Sequence record: PP400784
Strand: one strand, 5' to 3'
DNA: 64,000 bases
DNA from: Escherichia phage FL38
The notes below the pieces were generated by a model, which worked only from the letters and a program-made list of their open reading frames with translations, searched no databases and was not told where the DNA came from. The translations under genes and the position numbers were made by a program. Shown in pieces: positions 487 through 62,938 of the stretch. Every line of letters starts with the position of its first letter. The first letter of the stretch is position 1.

Positions 487-1434
487 TTAGAACTCACCAA
501 TTTTCTGCAACATTTTAACTAACGCATTTGTTACAAAATAGTTATAAATTTTACCGCGTGGTGCTGGTTTAGATTTCTCCCATGCTAACAAAATTTCATA
601 TTCGATGTTATCAGGAATAAATTCAAAATCAATAAGTTCGCGGTTTTCGTCAAAGCGTCGTGCTTCTTCCTCTGTCATCAAAGACTTTGGATCTTCGGCA
701 TCGAAAATTTGCTCTAACCATTTGGTTGCAATTGGTTTAGCTCGTTCTCCTTCCAGTCGTGAGATAATGAAATCACTACGGCACTTGATAGAAGCTACAC
801 CGTCTTTTGCGTCACCCTTAACACATTTTACCATAAGGTCTTTGTAAGGGCTACCATATTTGCATTTCTTCCACGCTTTCTGTACTGGCGACCACTGTTT
901 CACGTTTTTGTATTTGTGCAACTGTGTGTAGTCACCATCGCCTGAGTTGATCAGCACCTGGCGACCTTCGACAGAAAACTTTTTAGTTAACACAGCGATT
1001 ATATCATCCGCTTCAACTTTGTCAACCTTAATAACGTGATAAGGCATGTTCTCTTTAAACTCTTCGGTGATCTTATTGATCGCAGCAAAGATCATCTCCC
1101 AATCACGCGGATCTGCGTCTCGTTTTTCCTTACGGTTGCGTTTATAGTAAGGGGCGATATCACGTCGCCAGTAACCTTTACTTGAATCAAAGGCAAGTAC
1201 CGTAATTGGGTATTGCTCTTTGAATTTTGTCATATTATAACGCATGGTGTCAAGAATAAGATGACGAATCATGCCTTCATTAATAGGATCTTCCGGTTTA
1301 AAGGTATGCGAGATAGTAGCAATCATAAGCTGCGACATATCAATCAAATGCACACCTTCCGGCAGTTTATCTTCTGGATCATCGAAGAAATCATTAAGTG
1401 TAGCGGTAGTTTTTGTAAACGGGTTATACGTCAT
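487..1434 (-). CDS. rnh: RNase H (5'-3' exonuclease, FEN family)
   Basis: 315 aa; size and position (divergent from gene 34) match T4 rnh; FEN-like acidic motifs. Confidence 0.85.
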   Translation of the reverse strand: MTYNPFTKTTATLNDFFDDPEDKLPEGVHLIDMSQLMIATISHTFKPEDPINEGMIRHLILDTMRYNMTKFKEQYPITVLAFDSSKGYWRRDIAPYYKRNRKEKRDADPRDWEMIFAAINKITEEFKENMPYHVIKVDKVEADDIIAVLTKKFSVEGRQVLINSGDGDYTQLHKYKNVKQWSPVQKAWKKCKYGSPYKDLMVKCVKGDAKDGVASIKCRSDFIISRLEGERAKPIATKWLEQIFDAEDPKSLMTEEEARRFDENRELIDFEFIPDNIEYEILLAWEKSKPAPRGKIYNYFVTNALVKMLQKIGEF

Positions 1435-1436
1435 AA

Positions 1437-1622
1437 TTAAGTTCTCTCCACTCTCACAACAACATATTCGCCAAACGAGTTAGATACTTCACGATCATAC
1501 CCGTACTTCTCCATAACTCGCAGAATTGCATTGTTTAATTCAGCACGGAAATAATTATAATCCTTATCAGGGATTCTGTCAACTACCCATTTTGCACCTT
1601 CTGACAAATCAACTTTAACCAT
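1437..1622 (-). CDS. hypothetical protein (61 aa)
   Basis: ATG with AGAGGA SD upstream; stop abuts rnh start; divergent from gene 34. Confidence 0.5.
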   Translation of the reverse strand: MVKVDLSEGAKWVVDRIPDKDYNYFRAELNNAILRVMEKYGYDREVSNSFGEYVVVRVERT

Positions 1623-5437: not shown

Positions 5438-5442
5438 TTAAA

Positions 5443-5458
5443 GGGGGCGAAAGCCCCC
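5443..5458 (+). other. GC stem-loop GGGGGC-GAAA-GCCCCC between genes 34 and 35
   Basis: Perfect 6-bp stem with GNRA tetraloop GAAA; no U-tract, so not a classical terminator. Confidence 0.4.
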
Positions 5459-5470
5459 TATGGGGTTATT

Positions 5471-6610
5471 ATGACACAAGATATAGAATTACGCAATACT
5501 GGAATTAGGTTTGCGCATTTCGACGAAGACTCTGCGACATTTACCAGCATTTCAGAAAATAACTCTGTGATGTATAAGCTGGAAGTGCGCGGATCTAATG
5601 CGGATTCTACCAAACCAGCAAGGATTAGATTTAATGGAGTGGAGATCGTTGGCACTGGCTATGAAAATGGCCTAAATTTTAAAGTTCTTACTCCAACTGG
5701 ACAACTACACGAAGAAAAGGTATTCTATGGTCGCGGTGCTGTTTTGGCAATGCGTGATTATCTTTCTTTGCTGAAAGGTGACTATATCATTGCGATGGCA
5801 ACGCATGGAGAATTGTTTGCAGATCCGATCAGTGATGGTGTATTCTCTAAGCTGGGATCTGTATCATTCCCGAATCACATTTTGCTACAGCAAATGCCTC
5901 GTGTATCCTATGCAGCAATTTATTCTACTAAAATGGGTAAAATTGTGTGCGAAGGGATGCAAGCAACTCACGGGGAAGGACAAGATTCATCTATACAAAT
6001 TGAGAAAGTCTATGATACTATAGATGATCTTGCTATAACAGGAACACCACAACGATTTTTAGATTATCCGGTTGAGTATGTTAGCGAAGATTCCGAACAT
6101 TTCGAGCTAATACAATGGCCTCGTGATGAGACCAGCGCCCCACTTGAGGATTTTAACATAAAGGCAGGTGACAAACTATCAATATCCTTTGAATTGTTCC
6201 GTGATAGTGCCGCAGCCGCAGCCAACGTAACAGCGCGTTTCTATCACAACTACTTCACCGATGGACAATATCAAACTGGTGTTCGATACAATGCCAGCAA
6301 AAAAGACCAATGGGAAAAGTTTGAAGCCGTCTATACCGTACCGGAAGGAGTTGATAGTGTAGTAACTGGTTGTATCAGATATCCAACCAACTCCAATGAA
6401 GGTATTGTTAAAATTAGAAACATACTAATAACGCCGATCAGTGGAGTCGTCAAAACTACTGGTCCTACTTCATTTGGTGTTAATGGTGTTAGAACAACTC
6501 ATATTCAGGATAACGGTGATTTTACTAACCCTGTAATGAGTCTTCTTAAACTACCCAGAGATAATAAACACATCACATCCAACAACTTTAAAGAGTTCGA
6601 TGTTGATTAA
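5471..6610 (+). CDS. 35: long tail fibre hinge/connector gp35
   Basis: 379 aa (T4 gp35 is 372 aa), between 34 and 36. Confidence 0.75.
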   Translation: MTQDIELRNTGIRFAHFDEDSATFTSISENNSVMYKLEVRGSNADSTKPARIRFNGVEIVGTGYENGLNFKVLTPTGQLHEEKVFYGRGAVLAMRDYLSLLKGDYIIAMATHGELFADPISDGVFSKLGSVSFPNHILLQQMPRVSYAAIYSTKMGKIVCEGMQATHGEGQDSSIQIEKVYDTIDDLAITGTPQRFLDYPVEYVSEDSEHFELIQWPRDETSAPLEDFNIKAGDKLSISFELFRDSAAAAANVTARFYHNYFTDGQYQTGVRYNASKKDQWEKFEAVYTVPEGVDSVVTGCIRYPTNSNEGIVKIRNILITPISGVVKTTGPTSFGVNGVRTTHIQDNGDFTNPVMSLLKLPRDNKHITSNNFKEFDVD

Positions 6611-20936: not shown

Positions 20937-23045
20937 TTAAAATTTAACATTCTTAACCAGTTTCATAAAGTCTTGTGCGCGTTTGTCATTATGCAGAATA
21001 CGATACCAGTTATCTACAATATCATACAGTAACGGGCTATTCTCTTTAAACTTCGCACAAACTGCTTTAATTCGTTCGTTTGCTACCGTGAATTTTTCAT
21101 CACAAATCTTTTTAGTTTCTTCGTCCATAATCCAACGAGTACGAAGGAGTAACTTGGAAACCTCTTTATTATAATGACGACCGTACAGTCTGTCAATAAA
21201 TTCTGGAACACAGCGTTCTAGTTCATCGTCATGAAACAACATAGTGATCACACCCAGATATTCGCCATACCCCAGATGATTGGTCTTAACCTTCTTAGCC
21301 AGACCAGCCAGCTTACCGCGAACAAATTCTAGCGCACATTCCAATTGTTCGTCAACGAGATATTTTTGTGTCTCGTTTCGAGTAATAATATACTTTGTTA
21401 CCCCGAAGTAGTCAAGCGCCGTGTGTAATGTATTTTCACTATGGATCGATTTACGACTACGGCTTTCGAATGAATCACCTACGCGGAACATGTGCAAGCC
21501 TGATAACTCGCGAATCTCTGCCGCTTTCATGTGATGGCTGGTTTTATTCCAACTGTCACCAATCTTTTCCATGATATACACGTTAGGCAGCTTAGGAGTC
21601 GCTTCACGTTGTGTACGCTCGGTCTTCTCCGGTTTAACTGCTTTAGCACGCAGATCATCGGCCTCAGAAACTTTAATCACGGTCATTTCAGAATCATCAT
21701 AATACTGTTTGATGTACTCGAAAGTTTCCATATGTTTTTCGTTGCGCTGACGGAACACCAATACCTTTTTATTGATTCCGTATTCCTGGACCATGCCGTT
21801 AAGAGTCAGTGCACGCAGTTTCGGTTTATCGGTATCATCAATAAGACACGTAATATCTTCTTTATGCATCCATACAAAATGCGTAATGTTGTATTGACTG
21901 CTAACGAAAGCAGGGCGCAATTTACTGATTGTGTTACGAGTACGATATAGAGTATACACCTGACCTTCTACGTCATTTGGCGAATCTTTACCCGCATTCA
22001 CAAACTTATTATAGATTGCTACCGGATCATCCCACTGCCCGATCTTACCCATCTTGCTAATAATATTGCGTTGAGTCGATGAATACTCGCTCATAAATTG
22101 CGCAAGTTTACGCTCTGTTTTAATGTTGGCGATCTTCTCTTTAACCTTTTCCAACATCATTTCATTGATTTCTGCAATACGTTTTTCGATGTTCGCTTTA
22201 GTCTCAATTGACAAGTGAACTTCTTCACGCGATGGCATCAGGTCCAGATCACCCAACTCAAAATTAATGTAAATGGTCTGGTGCTGGCGGTTTACAGCTT
22301 CTAACCATGTTCCGCGAACATATTCATACGGGATCGGATACTGGATCTTACCCATGATTGCATATACTACATAGGAATCGTTATCACGCCCATTACAAAC
22401 ATAATAATTATCAAAGCTAGGGAAATAATTAATTTCGATTGCATTGATATTAGGTTTGTGTTCCCCAAAATGACGCAGTACAAATTGCGCTTCTCGATGC
22501 CATGTCTGAATGTCTTTTTCTTTCACTGGAATAGTGATTTTCAGACCATTGTCTTCATAGGTCGGTTCGTCGAAAATCTGCACCATTTTCGGCATAGAGT
22601 TTTGCACAAATGCCGTAAAGCCATAAGCGCGACCATTGTAATAGTTTACGATTGTAAAGGTGTCAGTGTAGCTATAAGCAGATTTCGCACCTAAACCAAA
22701 AGACCCGATATAGTCATTAGTCTGGTCTTTTGTTGATTCAAAGTAAACCGTAAACAGTTGTTCTAATTCTTTCTTAGACGGAATACCAGTACCATAATCA
22801 CGCACAGAAAAATACGGTTCGATTGCAGTCGGTAAATGAATATCAAACGGACGATCTAAGGTTCCGGCTTCTTTGTGAGTGTCGGTAGCATTGCACGAAT
22901 ACTCACGGACGCAAGCACGCTCACAATATTGATAAGTGTTCTTAGAAAGCACCATAAAAGCCTTGCTACTTGCTTTCAGTGAAAAATCAACCGCACCGCT
23001 CAGGTCACTGCCAAATACTTCTTCATTATCAATATGCATTTTCAT
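20937..23045 (-). CDS. rIIA: rIIA protein (GHKL-type ATPase fold)
   Basis: 702 aa; adjacent to rIIB as in T4; DYGTGIP/GSFGLGAKSAY ATPase-like motifs. Confidence 0.85.
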   Translation of the reverse strand: MKMHIDNEEVFGSDLSGAVDFSLKASSKAFMVLSKNTYQYCERACVREYSCNATDTHKEAGTLDRPFDIHLPTAIEPYFSVRDYGTGIPSKKELEQLFTVYFESTKDQTNDYIGSFGLGAKSAYSYTDTFTIVNYYNGRAYGFTAFVQNSMPKMVQIFDEPTYEDNGLKITIPVKEKDIQTWHREAQFVLRHFGEHKPNINAIEINYFPSFDNYYVCNGRDNDSYVVYAIMGKIQYPIPYEYVRGTWLEAVNRQHQTIYINFELGDLDLMPSREEVHLSIETKANIEKRIAEINEMMLEKVKEKIANIKTERKLAQFMSEYSSTQRNIISKMGKIGQWDDPVAIYNKFVNAGKDSPNDVEGQVYTLYRTRNTISKLRPAFVSSQYNITHFVWMHKEDITCLIDDTDKPKLRALTLNGMVQEYGINKKVLVFRQRNEKHMETFEYIKQYYDDSEMTVIKVSEADDLRAKAVKPEKTERTQREATPKLPNVYIMEKIGDSWNKTSHHMKAAEIRELSGLHMFRVGDSFESRSRKSIHSENTLHTALDYFGVTKYIITRNETQKYLVDEQLECALEFVRGKLAGLAKKVKTNHLGYGEYLGVITMLFHDDELERCVPEFIDRLYGRHYNKEVSKLLLRTRWIMDEETKKICDEKFTVANERIKAVCAKFKENSPLLYDIVDNWYRILHNDKRAQDFMKLVKNVKF

Positions 23046-23059
23046 AATATAATCCTCAC

Positions 23060-23317
23060 TTAATTAAAATCTTCTTTGTCCATCTCTGCGTAGATTACAT
23101 CCCACGCCCATAAATCAATAAACGCATTATATGTCACGGTGCAATCGTTGTCAATCACTTCTTTCGCATATTTCTTGATGTTTTCGTAGGAAACTTGCGG
23201 GTCAATTTTGTGTTTACGAAGGTGCGCATATTCATATCTCAGACATTTCATAAACAGGTCCATCGATTTCTTTTCTCGATGACACTTGGCGATCATAAAA
23301 TCAAAACTTCGACTCAT
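23060..23317 (-). CDS. hypothetical protein (85 aa)
   Basis: ORF. Confidence 0.5.
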   Translation of the reverse strand: MSRSFDFMIAKCHREKKSMDLFMKCLRYEYAHLRKHKIDPQVSYENIKKYAKEVIDNDCTVTYNAFIDLWAWDVIYAEMDKEDFN

Positions 23318-24076: not shown

Positions 24077-24141
24077 TATTAAATCCTCATAAACGAAAAG
24101 GGAGACTCCCATTATAGAGAATCTCCCTTGTATGTCAAGTG

Positions 24142-36885: not shown

Positions 36886-36907
36886 CCGCCATTATACACA
36901 CTTTATC

Positions 36908-39616
36908 TTAAATGTCAAACAGGTCTGTAAGAGATGCCACTTTTTCATATTGCAGCTTTGCAGCCGTGGTAATGTTCTCCAGTGGTTTGACGAAAGTCTT
37001 ATTAAACAACAAAGGCCAGTCTAACCACTTTAACACCTCTGATTCAATTTCTGGAGGAATACGAGTACCGGACAACCAACCAAAACAGATTTCTCCAAAC
37101 GGATTTCGATCTTTCAGCGGTACAATCATAACCTTCTCGCCTTCACGAATCGGATCTAGTCCGAATTTTCGAGCATTACGATTATAACACAATACACTCT
37201 TAACCGCATACGGACAACCCTTAATCGGATACCCGTTTGAATCGCTGTATTTCTGTAGGTTGTTTGCAGATGATACCGCAGCAACATCAAGATAGTCAAG
37301 TTTTCTAAATTCTTGCTCAAAAATACCGTAGTATTCCTGCAATGACTCTTCACCTTCCTGCAACATACGGCGAATACATTCTTTCAGTGATTTCTGACAT
37401 GCTTTAGGGGTGGAGCTACGTTGCGTTTCCAAGCCCATGATTTTTAGCTTAGGTTCAGCAAAGCGCGTTCCTTCCATATCCCAAACATTAAGAGCATAAC
37501 GCTTTTTACCAGTCCAGAATCCACCGATACCCGCAGATTTCAATGGAGGACCAGCAATTGCCTCACGGTCCATAAACATCAAGTGCTCATAGTTGTTCAT
37601 GTACTCGCATAACTCGCGATATCCCTTGTCGATAATAGGTTCCATTCGATGTTTACCGAAATTATCAAGGAAGTCAACAAGTTTTTCGGTATCGTCGAAA
37701 CGGTCTTCCCCGCCAACCTTATCAACAACATTGTTAACCAGCACATAAACGGAGTCAGTATCACAATAACGAACATATGCAAAATCGGTTGTTCCACAAA
37801 GCTCGTTTAAGTATTCGTTAATCTTACGCTCAATCCACTGAATTGCAAGCTGACCAAACAAGGTGATCGCACTAGCGTTACGGAGATCATAAAAACGGAA
37901 TTTAGGATTCCCCAACGCACCATAAAGGGAGTTGATCAAAACTTTACGAGAAAGCTGGTTTGTATTGCACAAGATCGACTCGTCTTTACATTCTTCCAGC
38001 AATTTCTCTAAGGCATCTTTACTTAATTCAGAAAGCATCGATTTAAACGCTTCATCAAAGTCGTGACGCACTTCAACGCTATAGTTAATGGTTCCTCCAT
38101 AAACATGATTTTCATCGTGTAGAATCGCTTTACAGAGTTCAGCATTGCGATCACATGCCAACATCATGTTTTTGTACTGCTTACGCTGATCGAATACCTT
38201 TTTAATCTCAATCGGTACGATACCGTGAATATCTTTTCTATACATCCATCCGTTAGGCGAGCAAGAATACTCATCACTCGGACGTGGTGCAGTTTTATTG
38301 ATATACTCGTGCATCGGTGCAGCATCAAAAGATCCAGCGATTGTTTCAGGCGAAATATTAACCTGTCGAATAATAGATGGGTACAGACTTGTTAAGTCAA
38401 AGCTCATCATCCAACGGTAAGCATTCGGCACAGGTTCTTTTACGAATGCGCCTGGATACGTCTGCTTAGGCTGTATCTTATTTTCCGGTACTACTTTACC
38501 CTCAGCTTTCAGAGATCCGAAGATAATAGCATCCCACACTTTCATCGGGTTATAAACATGGTTAAATTTAATCTTTGCATAGAAACATAGACTATACACC
38601 AGATCGATAAATCCACGCTTTTTATCAATCGCCAGAACACGATCAACGTCGCCGATGTTATAATCGATGTAAAGTTGATGGTTGTCATCACGCAATTTCT
38701 TTAACGGACCATCATAATCAACCTTACCGATTCCTGTCTCATATTCAGCAACATAATCTAATGCATATGTTGGTTGAGTCGTAAAGCTAAATTTCTTGTA
38801 CAGGTCAATATAATCAAGGCTTTCGATCCCCATGATCGTAAATGCTTCACGCTCGTTGCCAAAATCATCCTGTGAGATTCGGGATTTAATCTTACCGCAC
38901 GGGCTTAGACGGTTAGCGGTTCTACTTCCGAACTTATTACTGATACGTTTAATGATATATGGAATATCGAATGTTTCTGTGTTCCAGCCAGTGAAACCAA
39001 CGGGTCGGTTTTCCTCAAAGAATCGGATGTATTCTAACAGCAATTCATCTTCTGTGTCATAGACGTTATAAACAACGCGCTCTACAATATCAGGTCGAAG
39101 AATAGACTTGCTAGATTCCCAGATTTCACCGTTTTTTCCTTTCAAATCAAATACAAAGAAACGATCATGTACGGAATCATAATGCGTAATTGCATCGATA
39201 GGATATTTCGCTTCTTCTGGTTTAGGAAATTCTGGGGCAGTGACCTCGATATCAACCCATGCTACACGGATTTTATTTCGGTCATATCGAATCTCTCCTT
39301 TATACGTATCAGACAGATAGGAGATGATAAAATCATCCATCCCTAGCGCCTCTTGCCCCATTTCTCCCATCTTTTTACGCCATTTGTTGGCCTCGTTCAT
39401 AGAGGGGAATTTTTTAGCAATGCAAGGCTTGCCATAGATATCTTTATAATTCGTAACCATACCAGGCGCGGCATGATGAAATAAAGTTGGCGTATATTCA
39501 ACGTAACGCTCTTGTTCTTGTCCAGCATCATCAATATAACGCTCGTAGATCTTATCACCTACTCGCTCACATGACAGAAAATACATAATATAAACTCCTT
39601 CACTTACGAAAGACAC
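36908..39616 (-). CDS. 43: DNA polymerase (family B)
   Basis: 902 aa; YCDTDS polymerase motif; exonuclease motifs; T4 gp43 is 898 aa. Confidence 0.95.
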   Translation of the reverse strand: MSFVSEGVYIMYFLSCERVGDKIYERYIDDAGQEQERYVEYTPTLFHHAAPGMVTNYKDIYGKPCIAKKFPSMNEANKWRKKMGEMGQEALGMDDFIISYLSDTYKGEIRYDRNKIRVAWVDIEVTAPEFPKPEEAKYPIDAITHYDSVHDRFFVFDLKGKNGEIWESSKSILRPDIVERVVYNVYDTEDELLLEYIRFFEENRPVGFTGWNTETFDIPYIIKRISNKFGSRTANRLSPCGKIKSRISQDDFGNEREAFTIMGIESLDYIDLYKKFSFTTQPTYALDYVAEYETGIGKVDYDGPLKKLRDDNHQLYIDYNIGDVDRVLAIDKKRGFIDLVYSLCFYAKIKFNHVYNPMKVWDAIIFGSLKAEGKVVPENKIQPKQTYPGAFVKEPVPNAYRWMMSFDLTSLYPSIIRQVNISPETIAGSFDAAPMHEYINKTAPRPSDEYSCSPNGWMYRKDIHGIVPIEIKKVFDQRKQYKNMMLACDRNAELCKAILHDENHVYGGTINYSVEVRHDFDEAFKSMLSELSKDALEKLLEECKDESILCNTNQLSRKVLINSLYGALGNPKFRFYDLRNASAITLFGQLAIQWIERKINEYLNELCGTTDFAYVRYCDTDSVYVLVNNVVDKVGGEDRFDDTEKLVDFLDNFGKHRMEPIIDKGYRELCEYMNNYEHLMFMDREAIAGPPLKSAGIGGFWTGKKRYALNVWDMEGTRFAEPKLKIMGLETQRSSTPKACQKSLKECIRRMLQEGEESLQEYYGIFEQEFRKLDYLDVAAVSSANNLQKYSDSNGYPIKGCPYAVKSVLCYNRNARKFGLDPIREGEKVMIVPLKDRNPFGEICFGWLSGTRIPPEIESEVLKWLDWPLLFNKTFVKPLENITTAAKLQYEKVASLTDLFDI

Positions 39617-39668
39617 TCATTATAGGGGAATCGACTTAGTTTGTCAATACCCCTATCCCATCAGTATC

Positions 39669-50439: not shown

Positions 50440-50598
50440 TTACTTAATGATACTTACTTTACCAGATCCATGACAATGAGCGCAACACCCATCACCACGC
50501 AATCCTGTTCCGTTACAGTGTTTACACTTCTTCAACGGTAAAGCCATTATAGCAAATAAAGCAATAATGAATACCGAAACTAAATTCTCAATAATCAT
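50440..50598 (-). CDS. putative membrane-anchored zinc-ribbon peptide (52 aa)
   Basis: Not in ORF track; N-terminal TM helix then CKHCNGTG...CCAHCHGSG; ATG inside the end of the upstream gene. Confidence 0.4.
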   Translation of the reverse strand: MIIENLVSVFIIALFAIMALPLKKCKHCNGTGLRGDGCCAHCHGSGKVSIIK

Positions 50599-50857
50599 AA
50601 ATCGCCCTCAGTTCTTTATAGCCTCCAATGTGCTCGTTGTCAATGAATATCTGGGGGTATACAAATCGGAGGCTCTTTGAGTTCATCCTCCCCGCCAGTT
50701 CTTCAATCATATCACGGTCGGGAATAATGTCAACCCCGACCTGCTTGAATACTGGTTTAAGTGTATACGGAATACCCAGATCATCCAGTAGCTTCATTGC
50801 ACTAATACAACCATAACAATGATAAGCCTCTTTCGGTATACCGTATATCTCGATCAT
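50588..50857 (-). CDS. glutaredoxin-like protein (NrdH-like)
   Basis: 89 aa; CYGC redox motif; C-terminal PQIFIDNEHIGGYKEL glutaredoxin signature. Confidence 0.6.
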   Translation of the reverse strand: MIEIYGIPKEAYHCYGCISAMKLLDDLGIPYTLKPVFKQVGVDIIPDRDMIEELAGRMNSKSLRFVYPQIFIDNEHIGGYKELRAIYDY

Positions 50858-51354
50858 TTCTCAGCCTTTAATCTTTCTAGTTCTTCTTCCAGTTCCTTGA
50901 TCCGTTGGTCACGTTCAAAGTCACGCTGCAACTTAGTGGCGAATACTCGTTTAAACTGATTGTAATCATCGATTTTAAACACTTCTTCTTCGCCATAGCG
51001 ACGCACAGAAACTTCGTAGTTATTGAAGAATTGTTGCATCATTGCTTCGGATGATAGCTCTGCTGATACCACTTTAAAATATTGATCTTCTGTAGGCGAA
51101 AACCAATTACAAGCATAAAGATAAACCTTTTCATTGTCTGGACACTGGTAAGCCTTACCATCGATTTCAATCACAGAAACATATTCAGGTATACTAGATG
51201 AATCAATAGCTAAGACTTTAAACGCACGGTCCCCGATAAACTCGGAGATCACACGATTCGCATCACTGGTTGCAAATGCTTTACGCGCTTGTTCGTTTTT
51301 CCACTGATAGGTCATGCCAACAACAAACATATTACCAACCTCGCTCTTTACCAA
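50854..51354 (-). CDS. repeat-domain family protein (1 domain + helical tail)
   Basis: Shares the ...FKVLAID...IEIDG...WF...DQYFKVV core and coiled-coil tail with neighbours. Confidence 0.55.
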   Translation of the reverse strand: MVKSEVGNMFVVGMTYQWKNEQARKAFATSDANRVISEFIGDRAFKVLAIDSSSIPEYVSVIEIDGKAYQCPDNEKVYLYACNWFSPTEDQYFKVVSAELSSEAMMQQFFNNYEVSVRRYGEEEVFKIDDYNQFKRVFATKLQRDFERDQRIKELEEELERLKAEK

Positions 51355-52156
51355 TCAAAAATTCAACTTCACGACGTTTAATGTCTTCTTGAAGGTCTTT
51401 AATCTTCTGGCGATCTTGCATGATTTCATCCATCTTGTCAAGTGCCGCAATGAAATCATCGAAACGTTCAAAGGTTTTACCTTCATTTGCTTCGCCAAAT
51501 TTAACCATTGTCAGGCCGTAACGACTACTAAACAGACGTTTCAACTGTCCAACGATCTTAGAATCAGTGGTTATAACTTCCAATTCTTCTACTTCACGAA
51601 AGAATTTTCTATCAGAATCAATAAACCAGCTAGTTCCTTTATGGTCTCTATCTTCGGTTGCGCTCATTAGAGTATGGTCTTTACCATCAATTTCAATTAC
51701 ATCAATTTGCCCACATGGACGAACATTTTTAACAGTAAAAGGTCTATAATTTATTGCTCGTGCAATAACATAATTAAGATTAGATACGTTTTCAGCATAA
51801 TGACAGAAGTCGGTCATAGCATTCGCATCTTTCCAAGTATAAGTTTTACCAACTTCCCATTTCTGGGGAACTTCTTCAACTTCACGAAAGAATTTTCGAT
51901 CGAATGGACTAAAGAAATATGTTGCAGTCCAAATGTCTTTTCCTGTAGCAGTTTTCGCCGTATGATAAACACCGTCTAGCTCTATTGCATCAATCCAACC
52001 GTTACCATCGATCTCGATGATGGTAAATGGCTTGTCACCAATAGCTGCACTAATATCGCTGTTAAGTGGAGAAAGAACACCTTCTCCGTTAGTAATAAAC
52101 TCAGTTTTAGCGTTTTCATCTTTCCAGGTGTAGGTTTTACCAATTTCCCATTTCAT
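51332..52156 (-). CDS. repeat-domain family protein (2 tandem domains + helical tail)
   Basis: MKWEIGKTYTWKD...DRKFFREVEE occurs twice, then tail. Confidence 0.6.
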   Translation of the reverse strand: MKWEIGKTYTWKDENAKTEFITNGEGVLSPLNSDISAAIGDKPFTIIEIDGNGWIDAIELDGVYHTAKTATGKDIWTATYFFSPFDRKFFREVEEVPQKWEVGKTYTWKDANAMTDFCHYAENVSNLNYVIARAINYRPFTVKNVRPCGQIDVIEIDGKDHTLMSATEDRDHKGTSWFIDSDRKFFREVEELEVITTDSKIVGQLKRLFSSRYGLTMVKFGEANEGKTFERFDDFIAALDKMDEIMQDRQKIKDLQEDIKRREVEFLIGKERGW

Positions 52157-52168
52157 AATATATTCCCC

Positions 52169-52669
52169 TTAACCGATTTTATCAAGTTCGTTTAATGCTT
52201 TCTCTGCTTCCTGTATAGCTTGCACCCTTTCCGGCATTTTGTCAAGAAAATCTTTCAACTCTTCAAAACTGGAGATATGACGCAATGCGTTAGCACCGAT
52301 AGCCGCATGTGATTTGCATTCAAAGCGGATTTTATAATTATCCATCGCCAATTTGAGAAGGTCTATTAGATCATATTCATGACCAGGCAATAAAACTTCT
52401 TTGAAGCACGCTCGGTCGCCATCGGAAAACCATATATTATCACCAACATCGATAGAACTAATATAATCCCCTTCGTGATTATAGATTGAACGTACATTAC
52501 CCCAACGGTCTACCGTAGCGACAGTAAATGGTTTATCTAGATATGTAAACACACCATCAATATTAGGTTTTTGTTCGTAACGCCAACAATCACGCAAAAT
52601 GCGCTTTTCGTCCTCACCAACCAACTTATATGTCTTCCCTTCTTCCCATTTCATAATATCATCTCTCAT
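52169..52669 (-). CDS. repeat-domain family protein (1 domain + helical tail)
   Basis: MKWEEGKTY...KPFTVATVD...DRACFKEV, tail with LKDFLDKMP. Confidence 0.6.
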   Translation of the reverse strand: MRDDIMKWEEGKTYKLVGEDEKRILRDCWRYEQKPNIDGVFTYLDKPFTVATVDRWGNVRSIYNHEGDYISSIDVGDNIWFSDGDRACFKEVLLPGHEYDLIDLLKLAMDNYKIRFECKSHAAIGANALRHISSFEELKDFLDKMPERVQAIQEAEKALNELDKIG

Positions 52670-53195
52670 TTTTGATACGTGATTCTAATTGGATCATACG
52701 GTCGCGCGTTTGTTTGTATTCTCGGATAGCACCGATCCGGCTAGGCATACCATCCAGTACGCTCTTAATACCTTCTAGGGTAGTGATTTTAGCAATGCTA
52801 TTATGCAACCCCATCTTATCGATCAACTGAATGTCGTAGGCTTCCATAAGCAGACCCAGACGTTCTAAAGTTAGGTCTTCTTCTTTTTCTTCAGAATCTG
52901 GAATCTTAGGTTCAATAATAACTTCGGTAAAGAAACGACGCTCACCCGACCAAAACCACACACCGGAACAGCCAATAGGGGATTCTTTTAACGTCATAGA
53001 GTCGAAATCACTACCGATAATAGTAATTTCTCTAACATCACCATCATCGTCAATGTCTTCTACCCTAAACGGGCGACCAGCCAACAAGTCAACAATACAT
53101 CTGTTAATAGACGACGAAAATTTAGTCAGTTCGGCTTTCGACGCTTCGCATTCAATCTTGTAAGTTTTACCAACTTCCCATTCCATAATAATCAC
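52659..53195 (-). CDS. repeat-domain family protein (1 domain + helical tail)
   Basis: MEWEVGKTY...RPFRVEDID...ERRFFTEV, tail with LDGMP. Confidence 0.6.
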   Translation of the reverse strand: MIIMEWEVGKTYKIECEASKAELTKFSSSINRCIVDLLAGRPFRVEDIDDDGDVREITIIGSDFDSMTLKESPIGCSGVWFWSGERRFFTEVIIEPKIPDSEEKEEDLTLERLGLLMEAYDIQLIDKMGLHNSIAKITTLEGIKSVLDGMPSRIGAIREYKQTRDRMIQLESRIKNER

Positions 53196-53196
53196 C

Positions 53197-53706
53197 TCAA
53201 ATAATTTTCACTGGAATACTATTAACAATCTTGTATTGTACTTGATTGTCAGATCCCCGCCACGGCTTCTTCGTTGGCATATCTTTAATATAACGCCCAT
53301 CGATGAACATGTCAACTGATTCTACAATTTTTCTTTGCTCATCATTCAATTGGTCAAGGGTATAACCGGACCATAGCCAAATATCTTTATTTGGCATCCA
53401 TGATTTTACTTCATCGATGATCCGCTGTACACCCTTTAAATTGCGTTTATACAGTGGATCGCCACCTAAGAATGTTAGCCCCTGAATAAAATCAGGTCTA
53501 AGCAGATCCAGAATCAATCCCATTGTATCATCGGTGAATGGTTCCCCGTTCTTAGGATTGAGTAGGCTAGCATTAAAGCAACCATCACATGCATGTGAAC
53601 ATCCGGTAACGTAAAGGGAGACTCTCACTCCCTCACCGTTAACCATATCACAATCTTTAATATCGGCATAGCGTAGTTTGCCGTATGTATCAGAACTCAT
53701 ATTCAA
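53197..53706 (-). CDS. nrdG: anaerobic ribonucleotide reductase activating protein (radical SAM)
   Basis: 169 aa; GCSHACDGC cysteine cluster; adjacent to nrdD. Confidence 0.8.
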   Translation of the reverse strand: MNMSSDTYGKLRYADIKDCDMVNGEGVRVSLYVTGCSHACDGCFNASLLNPKNGEPFTDDTMGLILDLLRPDFIQGLTFLGGDPLYKRNLKGVQRIIDEVKSWMPNKDIWLWSGYTLDQLNDEQRKIVESVDMFIDGRYIKDMPTKKPWRGSDNQVQYKIVNSIPVKII

Positions 53707-53842
53707 TTACCCCGAACTCGTTTACAATCTGCGCTTTATAGTAACCACCGCGAGATGCTAATAGATAAGCTGGGCTTAGGTATTCGTATTCACGGATTTC
53801 TACTTGTGCGTTTTCAGTTTCCCAAATCAGTAAAGTCCACAT
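53690..53842 (-). CDS. hypothetical small protein (50 aa; start trimmed)
   Basis: Track start lies inside the promoter palindrome; internal ATG MWTLLIW has SD AGGAGAATCAAAT. Confidence 0.4.
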   Translation of the reverse strand: MWTLLIWETENAQVEIREYEYLSPAYLLASRGGYYKAQIVNEFGVIEYEF

Positions 53843-53884: not shown

Positions 53885-53914
53885 AGTATAGGGGATCTCG
53901 CGATCCCCGTCAAG
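53885..53914 (-). promoter_or_regulatory. early promoter with palindromic spacer (type I): TTGACG-GGGATCGCGAGATCCCC-TATACT
   Basis: Inverted repeat fills the spacer. Confidence 0.55.
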
Positions 53915-53917
53915 CAT

Positions 53918-54466
53918 TTATTTTAAATTTTTTCGAATGTAGTCAGACCATTCCTTCCCTGTCAGTTCGGTCCCATTCTGGAAACTGAAATATTCATACG
54001 GCATCGAGTCAAGATAAAACAGGATCATACATCGCGCCATATAATACCAATCACGATTAAAGTAAACTACGTTATCACCAGTACCATCAACCCCTTTATC
54101 ATAACCATCGCGGGTACGGGCGACCCATTGAATAGTATCATTTTTCTCGCGGATCGTAACAGGTTCCCAATATCCAGCACATCCAGCATGACCACACGAA
54201 CAAGTCAGGAAATATTGACCTTTTGCTTTGTTGTCATCCCATTCACGATGGATTGGTTCGATCTCGTGAAACAGTGCTAAGCAATCATGATTATGCAACA
54301 CTGGCTTACCATCAATCAATGCATGGAATGTATACAAACGACCAGTAGACAAATAGCTATCCTCACGCTCAACCAGTTCAATAGCAATCTTTTTAGCTCG
54401 TTCTTTGTGTCGTTGTGCTTTACGCTTACGGTTTAATGATTTCATATTCACCTCACACATTATCAA
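53918..54466 (-). CDS. hypothetical protein (182 aa) with Cys cluster CSCGHAGCAGY
   Basis: ORF between nrdD and nrdG. Confidence 0.5.
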   Translation of the reverse strand: MIMCEVNMKSLNRKRKAQRHKERAKKIAIELVEREDSYLSTGRLYTFHALIDGKPVLHNHDCLALFHEIEPIHREWDDNKAKGQYFLTCSCGHAGCAGYWEPVTIREKNDTIQWVARTRDGYDKGVDGTGDNVVYFNRDWYYMARCMILFYLDSMPYEYFSFQNGTELTGKEWSDYIRKNLK

Positions 54467-55002
54467 AGGTCGCGATATAGTACATTATGAAAATGAGAAC
54501 TTGCATTACCAATATTGTAGATAATAAATTCTTCATCCGGCGCTTGCGCTACAAATTGAGTATGAGCAACCGCCACAACCTTAAAAATACGATCCGTGAT
54601 CTTGTGTTTAATTTCTGCCCCTACTTCCATAGGAACATATTCATTTGTTTCTGTTTCAGTCGCAAAACAGCCATCTTCTTCATAAGCACGAACAAATCGA
54701 TCGCAATCAGTACGCTTAACAAATTCAAGAGTATACAATTCTCGTGAATTGTCGGTATAGACCAATACAGAATTATTATGATAGCGAATCACATACAGGT
54801 TATTATCATCGTCAATTACGCAAAAGCTACGGATTCCTTCGCCTTGACTCCAGCAGATATTAACCACCGTTCCTCTAATAAAAAAACTTTCCTTTAAATT
54901 AAAACTAGTCAATGTGCTAGCGTGCATTTTAACAACAACACCATCGCCAATTTCCAGTTTACGAAGTTTAACTTCTTTGTTCAGTACACAAAACATCATC
55001 AT
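54463..55002 (-). CDS. hypothetical protein (179 aa)
   Basis: ORF; TTGACA-16 nt-TATAAT promoter upstream at about 55030-55058. Confidence 0.5.
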   Translation of the reverse strand: MMMFCVLNKEVKLRKLEIGDGVVVKMHASTLTSFNLKESFFIRGTVVNICWSQGEGIRSFCVIDDDNNLYVIRYHNNSVLVYTDNSRELYTLEFVKRTDCDRFVRAYEEDGCFATETETNEYVPMEVGAEIKHKITDRIFKVVAVAHTQFVAQAPDEEFIIYNIGNASSHFHNVLYRDL

Positions 55003-55069
55003 GTTGTCCTCTCGTTGTTTTCGATGTGAGCATTATACATTAGCTAATCATGTTGTCAACACCCCAAAA

Positions 55070-55097
55070 CGAAAAAGCCGACCCTTTCGGATCGGCT
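55070..55097 (-). terminator. intrinsic terminator after nrdD
   Basis: Minus strand AGCCGATCCGAAAGGGTCGGCT then TTTTTC; same arm sequence as hairpins at 6623 and 16714. Confidence 0.55.
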
Positions 55098-55102
55098 GAA
55101 AA

Positions 55103-56965
55103 TTACATGTGCTTAACGCGGTTTACCATCTCGGAGTGTTTCCCGTGGTTAAATGGACGCAGATCAACAGATCCAAGATATCCACTAACGCGACGGATAA
55201 CATTCATCTTTTCCAGATTGTCATTGCCGCAATCAGGGCAAACAAAACCAGACTCGGTCGCTCTCATTTCCTTATTAGATCCGCATACATGACATACATC
55301 AGAAGGAGTATTAACACCGAAGTAGTGCAATTTATCCATTGCATAGTCTACTACAGTTTCAAGACCTTTCAGGTTGTTTTTCATGTCTGGGAACTCAACA
55401 TAAGAGATCATGCCACCGGACGCCAGCCAGTGATAATCTTTCTCAAAGTCGATTTTCTCAAATGGTGTGACTTTCCGGTCTACGTCAAGGTGGAATGAGT
55501 TGGTGTACCAGTCTTTATCGGTAGCACCCTTAACAATACCAAATTTCTCTCTGTCCAGTCGATTAAATCGATAGCAAAGACTCTCGGCTGGCGTACCGTA
55601 AAGACTAAACCCAAGTCCGGTTTCGTCCTTCCATTTTTCAGTATAATGACGCAAGATCTTAAGAATATGTTTACCGTATCGCTGCGCATCTTCCGAATCA
55701 AACGGATGAACACCAAACAGGACGCTCAATACCTCATGTAAACCAATATATCCAAGAGAGATACTAGCGCGACCATCTTTCAGCACTTCCAAAATTTCAT
55801 CGTTTTGATGAATACGGAAAAATGCACCTTCGGTATACAGTACAGGAGCAACATTGGCTTTAGCCCCTTTTAAAGCGTCTACGCGACTCATAAGCGCATC
55901 AAAACAAATAGGCAGACGATTCGCTAGCTCTTGTTCGAATAGCTCAATTCTGCGCATTACAGACGCTTTACCAGCACGACGCGCGGCAATAAGGGCAATA
56001 CGCGGAAGATTCAGAGTCACAACACCTAAGTTATTACGTCCGTCTAATACTTCTTCGCCTTTCTCATTATGCCACACACCCAGGAAGCTACGACAACCCA
56101 TCGGGCTAACCGGAACACTAGATCCAGTGATGCTACGGTTATTCTTCGCAGAGATATAATCAGGGTAAAGACGCTTACTCGAACATTCCAATGCAAGTTG
56201 CTTAATGTCGTAGTTCGGATCTTCCGGTTTAAGGTTTAATCCTTCTTCTAAGAACATCACCAGCTTAGGAAACACCGGAGTTATACCGTCTTTACCTAAA
56301 CCTTTAGTTCGAACTTTCAGGATCGCTTTCTGAATCAGTTTTTCTTCCCAGCTAGTACCCATACCAAAGGTTAAAGTCACAAAAGGCGTTTGACCGTTGG
56401 TGGAGAACAAAGTGTTGATTTCATATTCCAACGCTTGATACCCGTCTAAAGTTTCTTTTTCTGTCTTCTCTTGTGCATAGAGAGTATCAGCTTTGATTCC
56501 GTAGGTTTCGGCATCAGCAAGGTGTTTATGATATGTTTTCTCAACGTATGGCGCTAAAACCTGATCGATGTTTGCAATTGTGGTCCCGCCATATTGATGA
56601 CTTGCCACCTGTGCGATAATTTGAGCGGTTACAGCACAAGCAACGCCGATTGATTTCGGACTTTCGATTTGTGCGCTACCCAATTTAAAACCATTCTCTA
56701 ACATGTCTTTGAGATTAACAAGACAGCAGTTAGTAAACGGCATAGCTGGTGCATAATCCATATCATGATAATGAATATCACCGTCTACATGCGCTTTATA
56801 GATGTGCTCAGGTAACACGGTTTTAGCAATCTGTTTAGACACAGCGCCAGCAATCAGATCTCGACGTGTCGGGAATGTTCGCGCGTCTTTGTTCGCGTTC
56901 TCTTTGCTTACTTCGTTTTCTTTACCCGTTGCGATCTCTGTAATGTCTTTGATTAGTTTTTCCAT
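55103..56965 (-). CDS. nrdD: anaerobic ribonucleoside-triphosphate reductase (glycyl radical enzyme)
   Basis: 620 aa; C-terminal zinc ribbon CHVCG...CPDCGN and glycyl-radical motif RVSGYLG. Confidence 0.95.
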   Translation of the reverse strand: MEKLIKDITEIATGKENEVSKENANKDARTFPTRRDLIAGAVSKQIAKTVLPEHIYKAHVDGDIHYHDMDYAPAMPFTNCCLVNLKDMLENGFKLGSAQIESPKSIGVACAVTAQIIAQVASHQYGGTTIANIDQVLAPYVEKTYHKHLADAETYGIKADTLYAQEKTEKETLDGYQALEYEINTLFSTNGQTPFVTLTFGMGTSWEEKLIQKAILKVRTKGLGKDGITPVFPKLVMFLEEGLNLKPEDPNYDIKQLALECSSKRLYPDYISAKNNRSITGSSVPVSPMGCRSFLGVWHNEKGEEVLDGRNNLGVVTLNLPRIALIAARRAGKASVMRRIELFEQELANRLPICFDALMSRVDALKGAKANVAPVLYTEGAFFRIHQNDEILEVLKDGRASISLGYIGLHEVLSVLFGVHPFDSEDAQRYGKHILKILRHYTEKWKDETGLGFSLYGTPAESLCYRFNRLDREKFGIVKGATDKDWYTNSFHLDVDRKVTPFEKIDFEKDYHWLASGGMISYVEFPDMKNNLKGLETVVDYAMDKLHYFGVNTPSDVCHVCGSNKEMRATESGFVCPDCGNDNLEKMNVIRRVSGYLGSVDLRPFNHGKHSEMVNRVKHM

Positions 56966-57009: not shown

Positions 57010-57504
57010 TTATTTTACCAGTTCTGCTAATTCTTTTTCTTTAGCTTCTAGTTCAGCTTTAAGCTGTTTAATCTCTTGTCGCTTCTTATTAGCGGCTTCT
57101 TGCTTACTATTTCGGATAACCTGATCTAGATACAACTCCCAATCCTGAATATTTTTGATAATGTAACCGTCAACATTAATTGGTCGGAGATTCAGTACAG
57201 CTTCCAGTTTAGTCGCAAAAACTTTAATTGCTGGTGTGAAGTATTCATATTCGTTATCTTCAAACCAATAACCTAGACTTGCATTATCAATACGAAGACG
57301 AAGTTCAAGATCAAGGTCTTTATCTTCGGTGTAAAGATCTTTCACCTGACCCAGCGAACTAACAACAACTTTAAAACGAATTTTATCTACACCACCAAAC
57401 ACATCAGTAAGGATACCAGCAATTGAGCTATTAGCGCAAGATTGGTCGCTGAATGCGTCAAGGTTTTCTTTAGTTACAGTATACCAAACATCTTGTACCC
57501 ACAT
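57010..57504 (-). CDS. hypothetical protein, possibly divergent member of the repeat-domain family (coiled-coil C-terminus)
   Basis: YWFEDNEYEYF and KQLKAELEAKEKELAEL tail; weak similarity only. Confidence 0.45.
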   Translation of the reverse strand: MWVQDVWYTVTKENLDAFSDQSCANSSIAGILTDVFGGVDKIRFKVVVSSLGQVKDLYTEDKDLDLELRLRIDNASLGYWFEDNEYEYFTPAIKVFATKLEAVLNLRPINVDGYIIKNIQDWELYLDQVIRNSKQEAANKKRQEIKQLKAELEAKEKELAELVK

Positions 57505-57528
57505 AATATAATCCTCTCGTTGTTAAGT

Positions 57529-57563
57529 GGGAGTATTATAGCATACTCCCTTCGCATGTCAAG
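57529..57563 (-). promoter_or_regulatory. early promoter with inverted repeat (type II): TTGACA-16 nt-TATAAT within GGGAGTAT/ATACTCCC
   Basis: The -10 TATAAT sits in the loop of an 8-bp inverted repeat. Confidence 0.55.
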
Positions 57564-58737
57564 CACTAACTTTTTTCTTTACTGCTTTCACCTTCTGGCG
57601 AATTGCTCGAATCTCTTCGATCTCTTTTTCAGTCTCTTTAACAATTTCTTTGCGATTCTGAATATCTGTATCTAGATTATCATCAAGTTTAGGCAGCATG
57701 TCAATCAAGAACTTTTTAAAGTCTTTCAGGTTTCGGATAACAGCACCTTCACCCATTACCGCCACGCCTACACCATCCGGCAGATCACCAAACAGCTTAA
57801 CCAGTTCAGACAGATGATCATGATCTTCTAGTGCTTCTTCCGGTTCAGATGGCAGTTCAACAAAGTTATAACGTTCATCATTGCTGATCAGGTGATACCA
57901 GCAAAGCCCAAAAGATTTAGGAGTATATTCTACACCACCAACTTCAACTGCGTCAACACTTCCGAAAGAATCTACTTTAGTTACCTTAAATCCATGTTCC
58001 AGCGTTTTAATAATTTCAATAACATGACTGGATACGGTTTCAGTATTAAACCAATGAGGCAAATTATGTGGATTTGGCTTGTATCGTTCGCCTACTTTAA
58101 ATCTCTGACCACGCTCTTGCATACGGACATATTCAACTCGCGTGATTTCCGCGAAGTATTCAAATTCGCTACCGTCAAACAAGCAATTCCATTGATCACA
58201 AAAACGGTCCGCCTTGACGGTTTCACCTTTCGCGGTGATCATGGTAGCTGATCCGTGCAATTCTTCTTCAACTAAAAAGCCATATTCGACAAAATCAACA
58301 AGTTTCATGGCTTCTTTGTGCTCTGGGTCATGCTCTCCCCAGAATCGCTTAAATTCTTGCAAACCTTCTGGGGTAAACGAATAACATTTACCTTTTTCAA
58401 AGTAAGTCGGCATTGCATCCTCTTTCTTGTTCATCGCTTCGTATGCCTCTTTTGAGATACGTTTAAAGTATTTGCGCTCATTGTGCATAATCATAGTAGA
58501 CCAATAATAAACGATATCCTCAGCGGAATAAACTACATCTCCAGCTTCAATAGTAATAACATGACCGTGGTCATCTTTTTCTAATACTTTAAAGCCCTTT
58601 TCTACGATTTCAGCAACCCGAATATGACCACGGCGCGAAGCATCGGTCAGAATAATTGAATAGCGAGAAAAGTCTAGAAACTCATCTTTACCGCCTTCAC
58701 GGAATGCATAGTAATGACCTTCAAAGAATTTAGCCAT
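57559..58737 (-). CDS. repeat-domain family protein (3 tandem domains + helical tail)
   Basis: Three units each with F.xG.YY...GFKV...ERKYF/ERYNF, then tail with NLKDFKKFLIDMLP. Confidence 0.6.
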   Translation of the reverse strand: MAKFFEGHYYAFREGGKDEFLDFSRYSIILTDASRRGHIRVAEIVEKGFKVLEKDDHGHVITIEAGDVVYSAEDIVYYWSTMIMHNERKYFKRISKEAYEAMNKKEDAMPTYFEKGKCYSFTPEGLQEFKRFWGEHDPEHKEAMKLVDFVEYGFLVEEELHGSATMITAKGETVKADRFCDQWNCLFDGSEFEYFAEITRVEYVRMQERGQRFKVGERYKPNPHNLPHWFNTETVSSHVIEIIKTLEHGFKVTKVDSFGSVDAVEVGGVEYTPKSFGLCWYHLISNDERYNFVELPSEPEEALEDHDHLSELVKLFGDLPDGVGVAVMGEGAVIRNLKDFKKFLIDMLPKLDDNLDTDIQNRKEIVKETEKEIEEIRAIRQKVKAVKKKVSA

Positions 58738-58762
58738 AATATAATCCTCTCGTTGTTTAGAT

Positions 58763-58797
58763 GGGAGTATCTTACTACTCCCGTTTCATCATGTCAA
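58763..58797 (-). promoter_or_regulatory. early promoter with inverted repeat (type II): TTGACA-17 nt-TAAGAT within GGGAGTA/TACTCCC
   Basis: Palindrome identical to the one at 15139. Confidence 0.55.
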
Positions 58798-59378
58798 GCG
58801 TTAAATGACTTTTGGATCTCTTTCAGTTCAGCTACTTTATCTGCGCTGAATTTAGCGTAGGTATCATGTCGAATAATTTCACTTTCAAGAAAGGTTTCCA
58901 GTCGAGATCTATTTTCAATAAGGAACTCTTTCAGGTCTTCCGCGTTCTTGACAAAGATTTTATTGTCGGTAATGTCATCTTCAATCGCAAAGGAGATAGA
59001 GCGAACTTTACCAAACAAGTTAATCAGATCTTCCAGAGATTCTTCTTTCTTAACTGGTTTCATTTCTTCAAACTGCTTTTTAGTGATGCGTTTAAAGTAT
59101 TTGCGCTCGCTTGCATCAATCATGATTGACGCACCCTCATAATCATGAGTTTCTACCAAATACACTTTACCCATAACATTAACCGTAAGAACTTTAAAGC
59201 CCCTGTGAAGCACACCATACAGGAACTTGTTATGTTGTGGGTAGCGTTTAACAAATTCCTCTGCGGACTCAGCATTACGGAAAGTGTAATAACGACCTCG
59301 TTCAAAAACAGCATCATTTGAAGACTTAGCCGGATACAATTTATACGTTTTCTGTACCATAATATAATCCTCTATCAT
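58794..59378 (-). CDS. repeat-domain family protein (1 domain + helical tail)
   Basis: FERGRYYTF...GFKVL...ERKYFKRI, tail with AEDLKEFLIEN. Confidence 0.6.
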   Translation of the reverse strand: MIEDYIMVQKTYKLYPAKSSNDAVFERGRYYTFRNAESAEEFVKRYPQHNKFLYGVLHRGFKVLTVNVMGKVYLVETHDYEGASIMIDASERKYFKRITKKQFEEMKPVKKEESLEDLINLFGKVRSISFAIEDDITDNKIFVKNAEDLKEFLIENRSRLETFLESEIIRHDTYAKFSADKVAELKEIQKSFNA

Positions 59379-62869: not shown

Positions 62870-62938
62870 AATATAATCCTCACATCGTTCATTTGATGCG
62901 GTTATTATATGATAACCGCATTTTCATGTCAACAGTTT

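Follow-up and report, generated by a model that had tools for sequence, protein, structure and literature searches.

A probable exchangeable cassette of two accessory genes between nrdD and nrdG of Escherichia phage FL38, bounded by promoter/stem-loop elements

Between nrdD and nrdG, the genes for the large subunit of the anaerobic ribonucleotide reductase (RNR) and for its activating enzyme, Escherichia phage FL38 (sequence record PP400784) carries two open reading frames (ORFs), ORF179 and ORF182. These are probably two independent accessory genes in a cassette bounded by promoter-early stem-loops (PeSLs), situated in a hyperplastic slot of the Krischvirus genome. They lie in a stretch of 64,000 nucleotides that was analysed as a whole and is called the window below. 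The 2.1 kb around them show 99.3% identity to Escherichia phage kaaroe and 98.5% to RB49, and the records matching this region all belong to Krischvirus, the RB49-like T4-type phages (58/58). Along the minus strand, from 5' to 3', come nrdD, ORF179, ORF182, the DUF7170 gene and nrdG, with the following features:

55103..56965, minus strand: nrdD, anaerobic RNR large subunit and upstream flank of the cassette (PF13597, E=2.6e-175, plus a Gly_radical domain; 99% identical to RB49 NrdD)
55032..55097, minus strand: PeSL-A, assigned from promoter/terminator scan, fold energy and conservation in relatives
54463..55002, minus strand: ORF179, equal to RB49p055 and RB49ORF055c, phrog_14838, 179 aa
53918..54466, minus strand: ORF182, equal to RB49p054 and RB49ORF054c, phrog_8242, 182 aa in its longest reading, from TTG
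54167..54205, minus strand: cysteine-loop codons T-C-S-C-G-H-A-G-C-A-G-Y-W, residues 88-100 of the 182-aa reading of ORF182
53885..53913, minus strand: PeSL-B, assigned from a 10/12 promoter match, fold energy and conservation in the metagenomic contig L018 and in KMB43
53690..53842, minus strand: DUF7170 gene, equal to RB49p053, 50 aa (PF23776, E=2.4e-17; Shine-Dalgarno sequence AGGAG)
53197..53706, minus strand: nrdG, activating enzyme and downstream flank (PF13353, E=2.4e-43; the annotated start in RB49 is the ATG at 53700)

An earlier, sequence-only reading of this DNA had described two ORFs of 182 and 179 aa between nrdG and nrdD, with a cysteine cluster in the longer one, in the place that T4 gives to mobD. 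Both ORFs are present at 53918..54466 and 54463..55002, and the cluster is encoded at 54167-54205 as the string LTCSCGHAGCAGYWEP. The T4 gene at this junction is mobC, however, while mobD sits at nrdC.11/mobD.1 (PMC2988022). Nor do the two ORFs fill the interval by themselves, as a third gene, the 50-aa DUF7170 one, lies between ORF182 and nrdG.

Promoter/stem-loop elements around the two genes

PeSLs were described in phages RB49 and phi1 by Arbiol et al. 2010 (PMC2839356). According to that paper, each genome has about 51 PeSLs, most of them located in hyperplastic regions, just ahead of orphan ORFs; their stem-loop occurs in five positional subclasses, and nrdD is among the few known genes associated with PeSLs in these two phages. 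Promoter and terminator activity in reporter assays, like the formation of mini-circles, was shown for a few copies from phi1 and RB49 other than those treated here. The two elements considered here, PeSL-A and PeSL-B, are not individually named in the text consulted.

PeSL-A begins directly after the nrdD stop with a stem-loop, AGCCGATCC-GAAA-GGGTCGGCT (55097..55076), whose 9-bp stem is followed by a T-run. About 15 nt past it lies a promoter, TTGACA-16-TATAAT (55059..55032), that matches the sigma-70 consensus at 12 of 12 positions, and the element folds at -23.9 kcal/mol (z=-3.25). Downstream of the promoter come a conserved leader, AACAACGAGAGGA, and the start of ORF179 with the Shine-Dalgarno sequence GAGAGGA; the same leader also follows the promoter at 57562. 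Nucleotide alignments show PeSL-A and its leader conserved in JSE, KFS-EC, KMB43 and JK32, and the divergent metagenomic relative L018 has the same stem with another loop.

PeSL-B stands directly after the ORF182 stop and before the DUF7170 gene. Its promoter, TTGACG-GGGGATCGCGAGATCCCC-TATACT, has a 17-nt spacing and agrees with the consensus at 10 of 12 positions, and a hairpin with a 7-bp stem of G/C tracts and a GCGA loop occupies the space between -35 and -10 (-14.7 kcal/mol, z=-3.24). The element is kept in L018 as GGGATC-TTCG-GATCCC, and KMB43 has a loop variant.

Both elements are intergenic, PeSL-A between nrdD and ORF179 and PeSL-B between ORF182 and DUF7170, and each combines a sigma-70-like promoter, a stem-loop in a described position and, at its 3' end, a Shine-Dalgarno sequence and a start codon. 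ORF179 and ORF182 thus appear to be enclosed in a PeSL-bounded cassette that resembles the PeSL-flanked ORFan modules in hyperplastic regions of the RB49, phi1 and JSE type (PMC2839356; Comeau et al. 2014, PMC4122927). The likeness extends to a sigma-70 promoter with a stable stem-loop, placed upstream of the -35 box in PeSL-A and between -35 and -10 in PeSL-B, to the intergenic position directly upstream of orphan ORFs, to the conserved leader with its Shine-Dalgarno sequence, and to swap breakpoints at the elements. Unlike those modules, the cassette holds two genes with no PeSL between them, yet these are also exchanged singly, and no deletion or insertion variant of it was found.

A scan of the window for perfect TTGACA-N15-18-TATAAT sites returned ten, all on the coding (minus) strand, against 0.09 expected:

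998-1025, minus strand: perfect promoter
1554-1582, minus strand: perfect promoter
21168-21196, minus strand: perfect promoter
23126-23154, minus strand: perfect promoter
24111-24138, minus strand: perfect promoter
36891-36918, minus strand: perfect promoter
39619-39647, minus strand: perfect promoter
55032-55059, minus strand: perfect promoter, that of PeSL-A
57535-57562, minus strand: perfect promoter
62904-62932, minus strand: perfect promoter

Several of them overlap G/C-rich stem-loops, for example those at 24138..24111, 57562..57535, 62932..62904 and 39647..39619, and are therefore read as further PeSL copies in the window. An Rfam scan of the whole window gave no match, and no late promoter (TATAAATA) was found in the region.

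The position of the two ORFs inside the anaerobic RNR operon, as first described, holds for the map but probably not for transcription. Because a terminator-like stem-loop and a perfect sigma-70 promoter follow nrdD, the ORFs are probably the first genes of an early transcription unit of their own, and simple co-transcription of nrdD and nrdG as one operon is unlikely. Judging from the promoter consensus, host RNA polymerase would probably transcribe ORF179 and ORF182 immediately after infection.

Exchange of alleles within Krischvirus

The sliding identity of the window was followed against four Krischviruses, JSE, KFS-EC, KMB43 and JK32, together with nucleotide alignments. JSE has about 100% identity along nrdD and regains it at 53900, and in the stretch between them both ORFs are divergent (73% and 51% aa). 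In KFS-EC and KMB43 ORF182 alone is divergent (about 50-58% aa), and in JK32 ORF179 alone (60% aa). NrdD, DUF7170 and NrdG are 99-100% identical in all four phages, and the flanks of the exchanged alleles are 98-100% identical between genomes. This pattern indicates that each ORF has been exchanged independently among otherwise near-identical phages.

The breakpoints, as located by identity profiles and nucleotide alignments, fall at PeSL-A and the 5' end of ORF179 on one side and at the AT-rich stop region of PeSL-B on the other. The divergent alleles of ORF182 run back into the window sequence precisely at AAATAAATGC-TTGACG, a string made up of the AT-rich stop region and the PeSL-B -35 box. 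Arbiol et al. 2010 placed the crossovers of PeSLs at this kind of site (PMC2839356). Homologous recombination in the conserved PeSL and AT-rich junctions probably moves the modules, as that paper proposes. There is no PeSL between ORF179 and ORF182, yet each has also been replaced singly.

The sequence-only reading had offered a replaced mobile insertion as one explanation of the two ORFs. The slot is indeed variable and holds exchangeable modules, but it contains no endonuclease remnant, and the exchange is tied to PeSL-type cassettes rather than to homing.

ORF179 and ORF182 as genes under selection

Judged from their sequences, ORF179 and ORF182 are genuine genes under purifying selection and not chance reading frames. 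Both are present in all 58 of the 58 Krischvirus records that carry this nrdG, and both are preceded by good Shine-Dalgarno sequences. Their dN/dS lies between 0.06 and 0.39 (Nei-Gojobori, window against five other Krischviruses); for the divergent alleles, dS is saturated (1.25-1.49) and dN/dS is still 0.2-0.3. In PHROGs v4, ORF182 matches phrog_8242 over its full length (E=3e-83, profile positions 2-180 of 181) and ORF179 likewise matches phrog_14838 (E=4.7e-120, positions 1-180 of 180). Both families are annotated 'unknown function', and membership gives no mechanism.

The frame of ORF182 is open for 182 codons, as stated earlier, but the gene itself is probably shorter. The homologues all begin M(S)KSLNRK at the position of the ATG at 54445, and the Shine-Dalgarno sequence GAGGTG precedes it, so translation probably starts there (MKSLNRK...) and yields 175 aa; the RB49 annotation agrees.

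Repeated PeSL recombination might also keep genes that do nothing, in which case both ORFs would be functionless hitch-hikers and the cysteine motif a structural leftover. Two orphan families without known function and of unremarkable base composition would suit this account, as would the three genomes MIZ6, MIZ3 and pEJ01, in which ORF179 is annotated as two coding sequences (CDSs). In MIZ6 (L017 701-1245) the split goes back to a T7 run (window ~54880) that has lost 1 nt; this may be a genuine frameshift, and thus a natural knockout, or a homopolymer sequencing error. Against hitch-hiking stand a dN/dS well below 1 even between saturated alleles, the retention of both genes in every one of the 58 genomes, a cysteine loop that is invariant across phage families, and the position of ORF179, which is kept in a relative only 29% identical. 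Functionless passengers are hence an unlikely explanation.

ORF179 and its relatives

ORF179 is predicted to be an all-beta orphan protein, which may comprise two SH3/Tudor-like barrels. The family is confined to Krischvirus and one metagenomic relative in the same slot. That relative is the T4-like contig L018, whose NrdD and NrdG are 82% and 72% identical in amino acids to those of the window and whose gene order is nrdD, PeSL-A, one gene, PeSL-B, DUF7170 and nrdG. The single gene between its PeSLs (P0023) is an ORF179 homologue with 29% identity, and no ORF182 homologue was found in its nrdD-nrdG interval. This homologue suggests that ORF179 has been in the slot longer than ORF182, which would then probably be the later arrival. 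ORF179 also appears to evolve much faster than its neighbours.

A HMMER scan of 1.84 billion representatives with ORF179 returned its own family and P0023, and otherwise weak matches to NHL-type beta-propeller repeats, which were taken as a resemblance of beta-hairpins and not as homology. Paralogy with the neighbouring 'WExGKTY...FKV' family was rejected as unproven (hhalign probability 7.7%), and an internal duplication of ORF179 was not significant (hhalign P=0.034). Within the window, phmmer found no paralogues of either ORF179 or ORF182. For both proteins, Pfam, NCBIfam and PADLOC gave nothing, single-sequence and profile searches of PDB gave nothing below E=0.1, and known defence-system proteins gave no match.

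ORF182, its cysteine loop and the reductase

ORF182 is predicted to consist of a basic helix at the N-terminus and an alpha/beta body that carries an invariant three-cysteine (Cys3) loop; the loop has a pLDDT below 50 in the AF2 model. In alignments of the family, C89, S90, C91, G92, G95 and C96 are invariant and T88, A97 and G98 nearly so, and the core shared by the relatives is limited to the loop TCSCGxxGC. No fourth conserved ligand (Cys, His, Asp or Glu) was found in the family alignment. A natural guess is that the Cys3 loop may be a metal site, in which either Zn would be completed by a water or an inter-subunit ligand, or an Fe-S cluster would keep one site open. Pfam searches with 12 ORF182 relatives gave noise only, such as TPR and RING.

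The family is wider than that of ORF179 but rare and essentially confined to phages. All 12 tested relatives fall in phrog_8242; IMG/VR holds ten loci, and among 185,579 species genomes there are three matches, all on contigs of metagenome-assembled genomes. Outside Krischvirus, none of the relatives lies between nrdD and nrdG, and their surroundings differ:

Certrevirus CR8: adjoins an HD hydrolase and an ATPase
T4-like contig: flanked by a dexA-like gene and gene 39
Stenotrophomonas jumbo phage RAS14: surrounded by hypothetical genes
Aeromonas phages: past nrdG, at a distance of 3-4 kb
Contig L023: 3.8 kb upstream of nrdD

Contig L023 (IMG/VR IMGVR_UViG_3300045988_163358, 136 kb) carries its ORF182 homologue at 4994-5540, preceded by a TTGACG-17-TATAAT promoter of its own. 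This homologue is 88-89% identical in amino acids and 88.5-88.9% in nucleotides to the JSE/Makalu allele, and it is the sole gene that the 10.5-kb locus shares with Krischvirus (megablast against the phage collection, in which other phages matched weakly). The nrdD fragment of L023 is 51% identical in amino acids to NrdD of the window and about 71% identical in nucleotides to nrdD of other large Escherichia phages. These comparisons point to a recent horizontal transfer in which the ORF182 gene moved as a single-gene module between dissimilar phages.

An accessory redox function had been suggested from the place of the ORFs beside the reductase genes. On this account one or both proteins would serve the anaerobic RNR, with ORF182, for example, as a metal or Fe-S redox partner, either assisting NrdG in forming the glycyl radical or protecting or repairing NrdD. 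The location between nrdD and nrdG, the invariant three-cysteine loop of ORF182, the ORF179-like gene in the same slot in L018, its sole distant relative known, and the Aeromonas phage homologues of ORF182 at 3-4 kb from nrdG would all fit. Several findings weigh on the other side. Phages do without either protein at this site, as nrdD abuts nrdG in RB69 and most Tequatrovirus and Mosigvirus phages and T4 has an endonuclease alone there. ORF182 relatives in Certrevirus, RAS14 and the loci L006, L007 and L008 have no nrdD or nrdG within 5 kb, alleles of about 50% identity have been swapped without change in NrdD or NrdG, and the two ORFs have their own promoter after a terminator. The loop itself offers three conserved ligands only, and neither the window proteins nor 12 family members had a Gly_radical, radical-SAM, ferredoxin, flavodoxin or thioredoxin-type Pfam match at E<=1.

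Small proteins associated with glycyl-radical enzymes do occur in T4-like phages. ORF182 is also faintly reminiscent of autonomous glycyl-radical cofactors, namely YfiD/GrcA of E. coli and vs.6 of T4, the latter carrying a Gly_radical match (PMC1524935), in that its 'CAGYW' recalls their RVxG[FWY]. Unlike YfiD/GrcA, it lacks a Gly_radical Pfam match, its motif is internal, and the glycine (G98) is replaced by serine in one homologue. The glycyl-radical reading of 'CAGYW' was rejected on the latter ground, together with the absence of a domain match. A part for these proteins in the anaerobic reductase is accordingly quite improbable, less so for ORF179, whose sole distant relative occupies the same slot, and no support was found for the redox suggestion.

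The nrdD/nrdG junction across T4-like phages

The sequence-only reading had also called for a comparison of the nrdG-nrdD interval across T4-like genomes. The comparison was made, and the contents differ by genus:

RB69: a 4-nt overlap of nrdD with nrdG
Many Tequatrovirus and Mosigvirus records: nrdD directly abuts nrdG
T4: mobC (HNH)
Jiaodavirus KP182: a single small ORF (DUF7415)
Pseudotevenvirus Miller: a terminator, then seven hypothetical ORFs
Pseudotevenvirus leE: several ORFs and two homing endonucleases

None of the occupants in T4, KP182, Miller and leE is related to ORF179 or ORF182. A review reports that seg and mob endonucleases target nrdD and nrdG (PMC2988022). The junction thus reads as a recurrent insertion site, which Krischvirus fills with PeSL cargo.

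The two ORFs share with the mobC and segH insertions of T4 at this junction (PMC2988022, citing Sandegren et al. 2005) the slot, the orientation and the use of a site of repeated insertion. Unlike mobC and segH, they have no nuclease domain or sequence similarity to them; the T4 genes are promoter-less or middle/late, whereas ORF179 and ORF182 have their own early-type promoter and are fixed in the genus rather than sporadic. That they are degenerate remnants or replacements of a free-standing homing endonuclease of the MobC or SegH type, as the presence of mobC in T4 and of homing endonucleases in Pseudotevenvirus leE and others in the same slot might suggest, is highly improbable: neither ORF matches HNH, GIY-YIG or any other endonuclease family in Pfam, PHROGs, NCBIfam or PADLOC, in keeping with the lack of an endonuclease motif noted earlier, while MobC itself, used as the positive control, matches HNH (PF01844); BLASTP of both ORFs against MobC gave no alignment; both ORFs are intact, under purifying selection and found in 58/58 genomes, unlike sporadic homing endonuclease genes; and the free-standing endonucleases of T4 are not driven by early promoters (PMC2988022).

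Neighbouring genes

The end of the DUF7170 gene overlaps the start of nrdG. Its product is 98-100% identical in amino acids across the compared Krischvirus loci, even where both upstream ORFs are replaced, and its linkage to nrdG is tighter than that of ORF179 and ORF182. In L018 (5560-5710) DUF7170 matches in two reading frames, which suggests a frameshift. T4 gp49.1 was considered as a counterpart of DUF7170 and rejected, as the two have no similarity. No paper on DUF7170, ORF179 or ORF182 was found.

In KFS-EC and KMB43 the gene right downstream of nrdG (RB49p051, window 52700-53218, minus strand) is also deeply divergent (41-61% nt); the replaced allele forms a second replaced module, beside an nrdG of 99-100% aa identity. 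In JSE (L013 1-1161; window ~56140-56300), nrdD is annotated as a 996-nt 3' fragment with a 'Homing endonuclease' CDS before it, and identity to the window collapses upstream of ~56140; a mobile endonuclease therefore seems to split nrdD itself in JSE.

Seven genes flanking nrdG and nrdD (50854-53195 and 57010-59378, minus strand) form one paralogous family with no Pfam match, whose members share an N-terminal module, 'W-E-x-G-K-T-Y ... F-K-V..V-D..G.V ... W-F ... F.E', and a helical tail behind it. The module occurs two to three times in the members of 274 and 392 aa, and RB49 calls the 392-aa one frd.2, 'goF mRNA metabolism modulator'. Beside nrdH lies a 52-aa ORF (50440-50598, minus strand) equal to RB49p046, annotated as hypothetical; it has a hydrophobic N-terminus, and its string CKHCNGTGLRGDGCCAHCHGSGK resembles two DnaJ-type CxxCxGxG zinc knuckles.

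Possible role and significance

The two accessory genes of the PeSL-bounded cassette are under purifying selection, retained throughout the genus and deeply diverse in their alleles between otherwise identical genomes, which suggests a role that depends on a variable host target. From this we infer, with low confidence, that both proteins are non-enzymatic early host-interaction binding factors, acting in takeover or counter-defence, and do not belong to the anaerobic reductase. On this view ORF179 would serve as an SH3/Tudor-like adaptor of two barrels, and ORF182 would be a small protein whose N-terminal helix is basic and whose Cys3 loop binds metal. The most specific form of this proposal is tentative: phrog_8242 might represent a new fold with an invariant Cys3 metal loop and act as an immediate-early takeover or counter-defence effector, with ORF179 as a fast-evolving two-barrel adaptor in a similar role.

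The genes have been recorded as hypothetical proteins since the RB49 genome, and their PHROG families, the PeSL mechanism and the association of PeSLs with nrdD are likewise already known. The new elements are the assignment of the PeSL-A/PeSL-B cassette, the breakpoints at nucleotide level, the same-slot ORF179 homologue in a second lineage, the transfer of ORF182 between dissimilar phages and the definition of its invariant Cys3 loop.

A false lead is thereby removed, in that the position between nrdD and nrdG would reflect a recombination hot spot and not a reductase cofactor or a hidden homing endonuclease. The locus also provides a nucleotide-resolved example of PeSL-bounded module exchange, among them what looks like the passage of one gene between dissimilar phages. 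The family phrog_8242, whose three-cysteine loop is invariant and for which PDB offers no structural relatives, is a reasonable candidate for screens of early phage effectors. If the proposed role is true, an arms race with the host would be reflected in the deep allelic diversity of this family and in its transfer, as a single-gene module, from one to the other of Straboviridae and further large E. coli myovirus-type phages.

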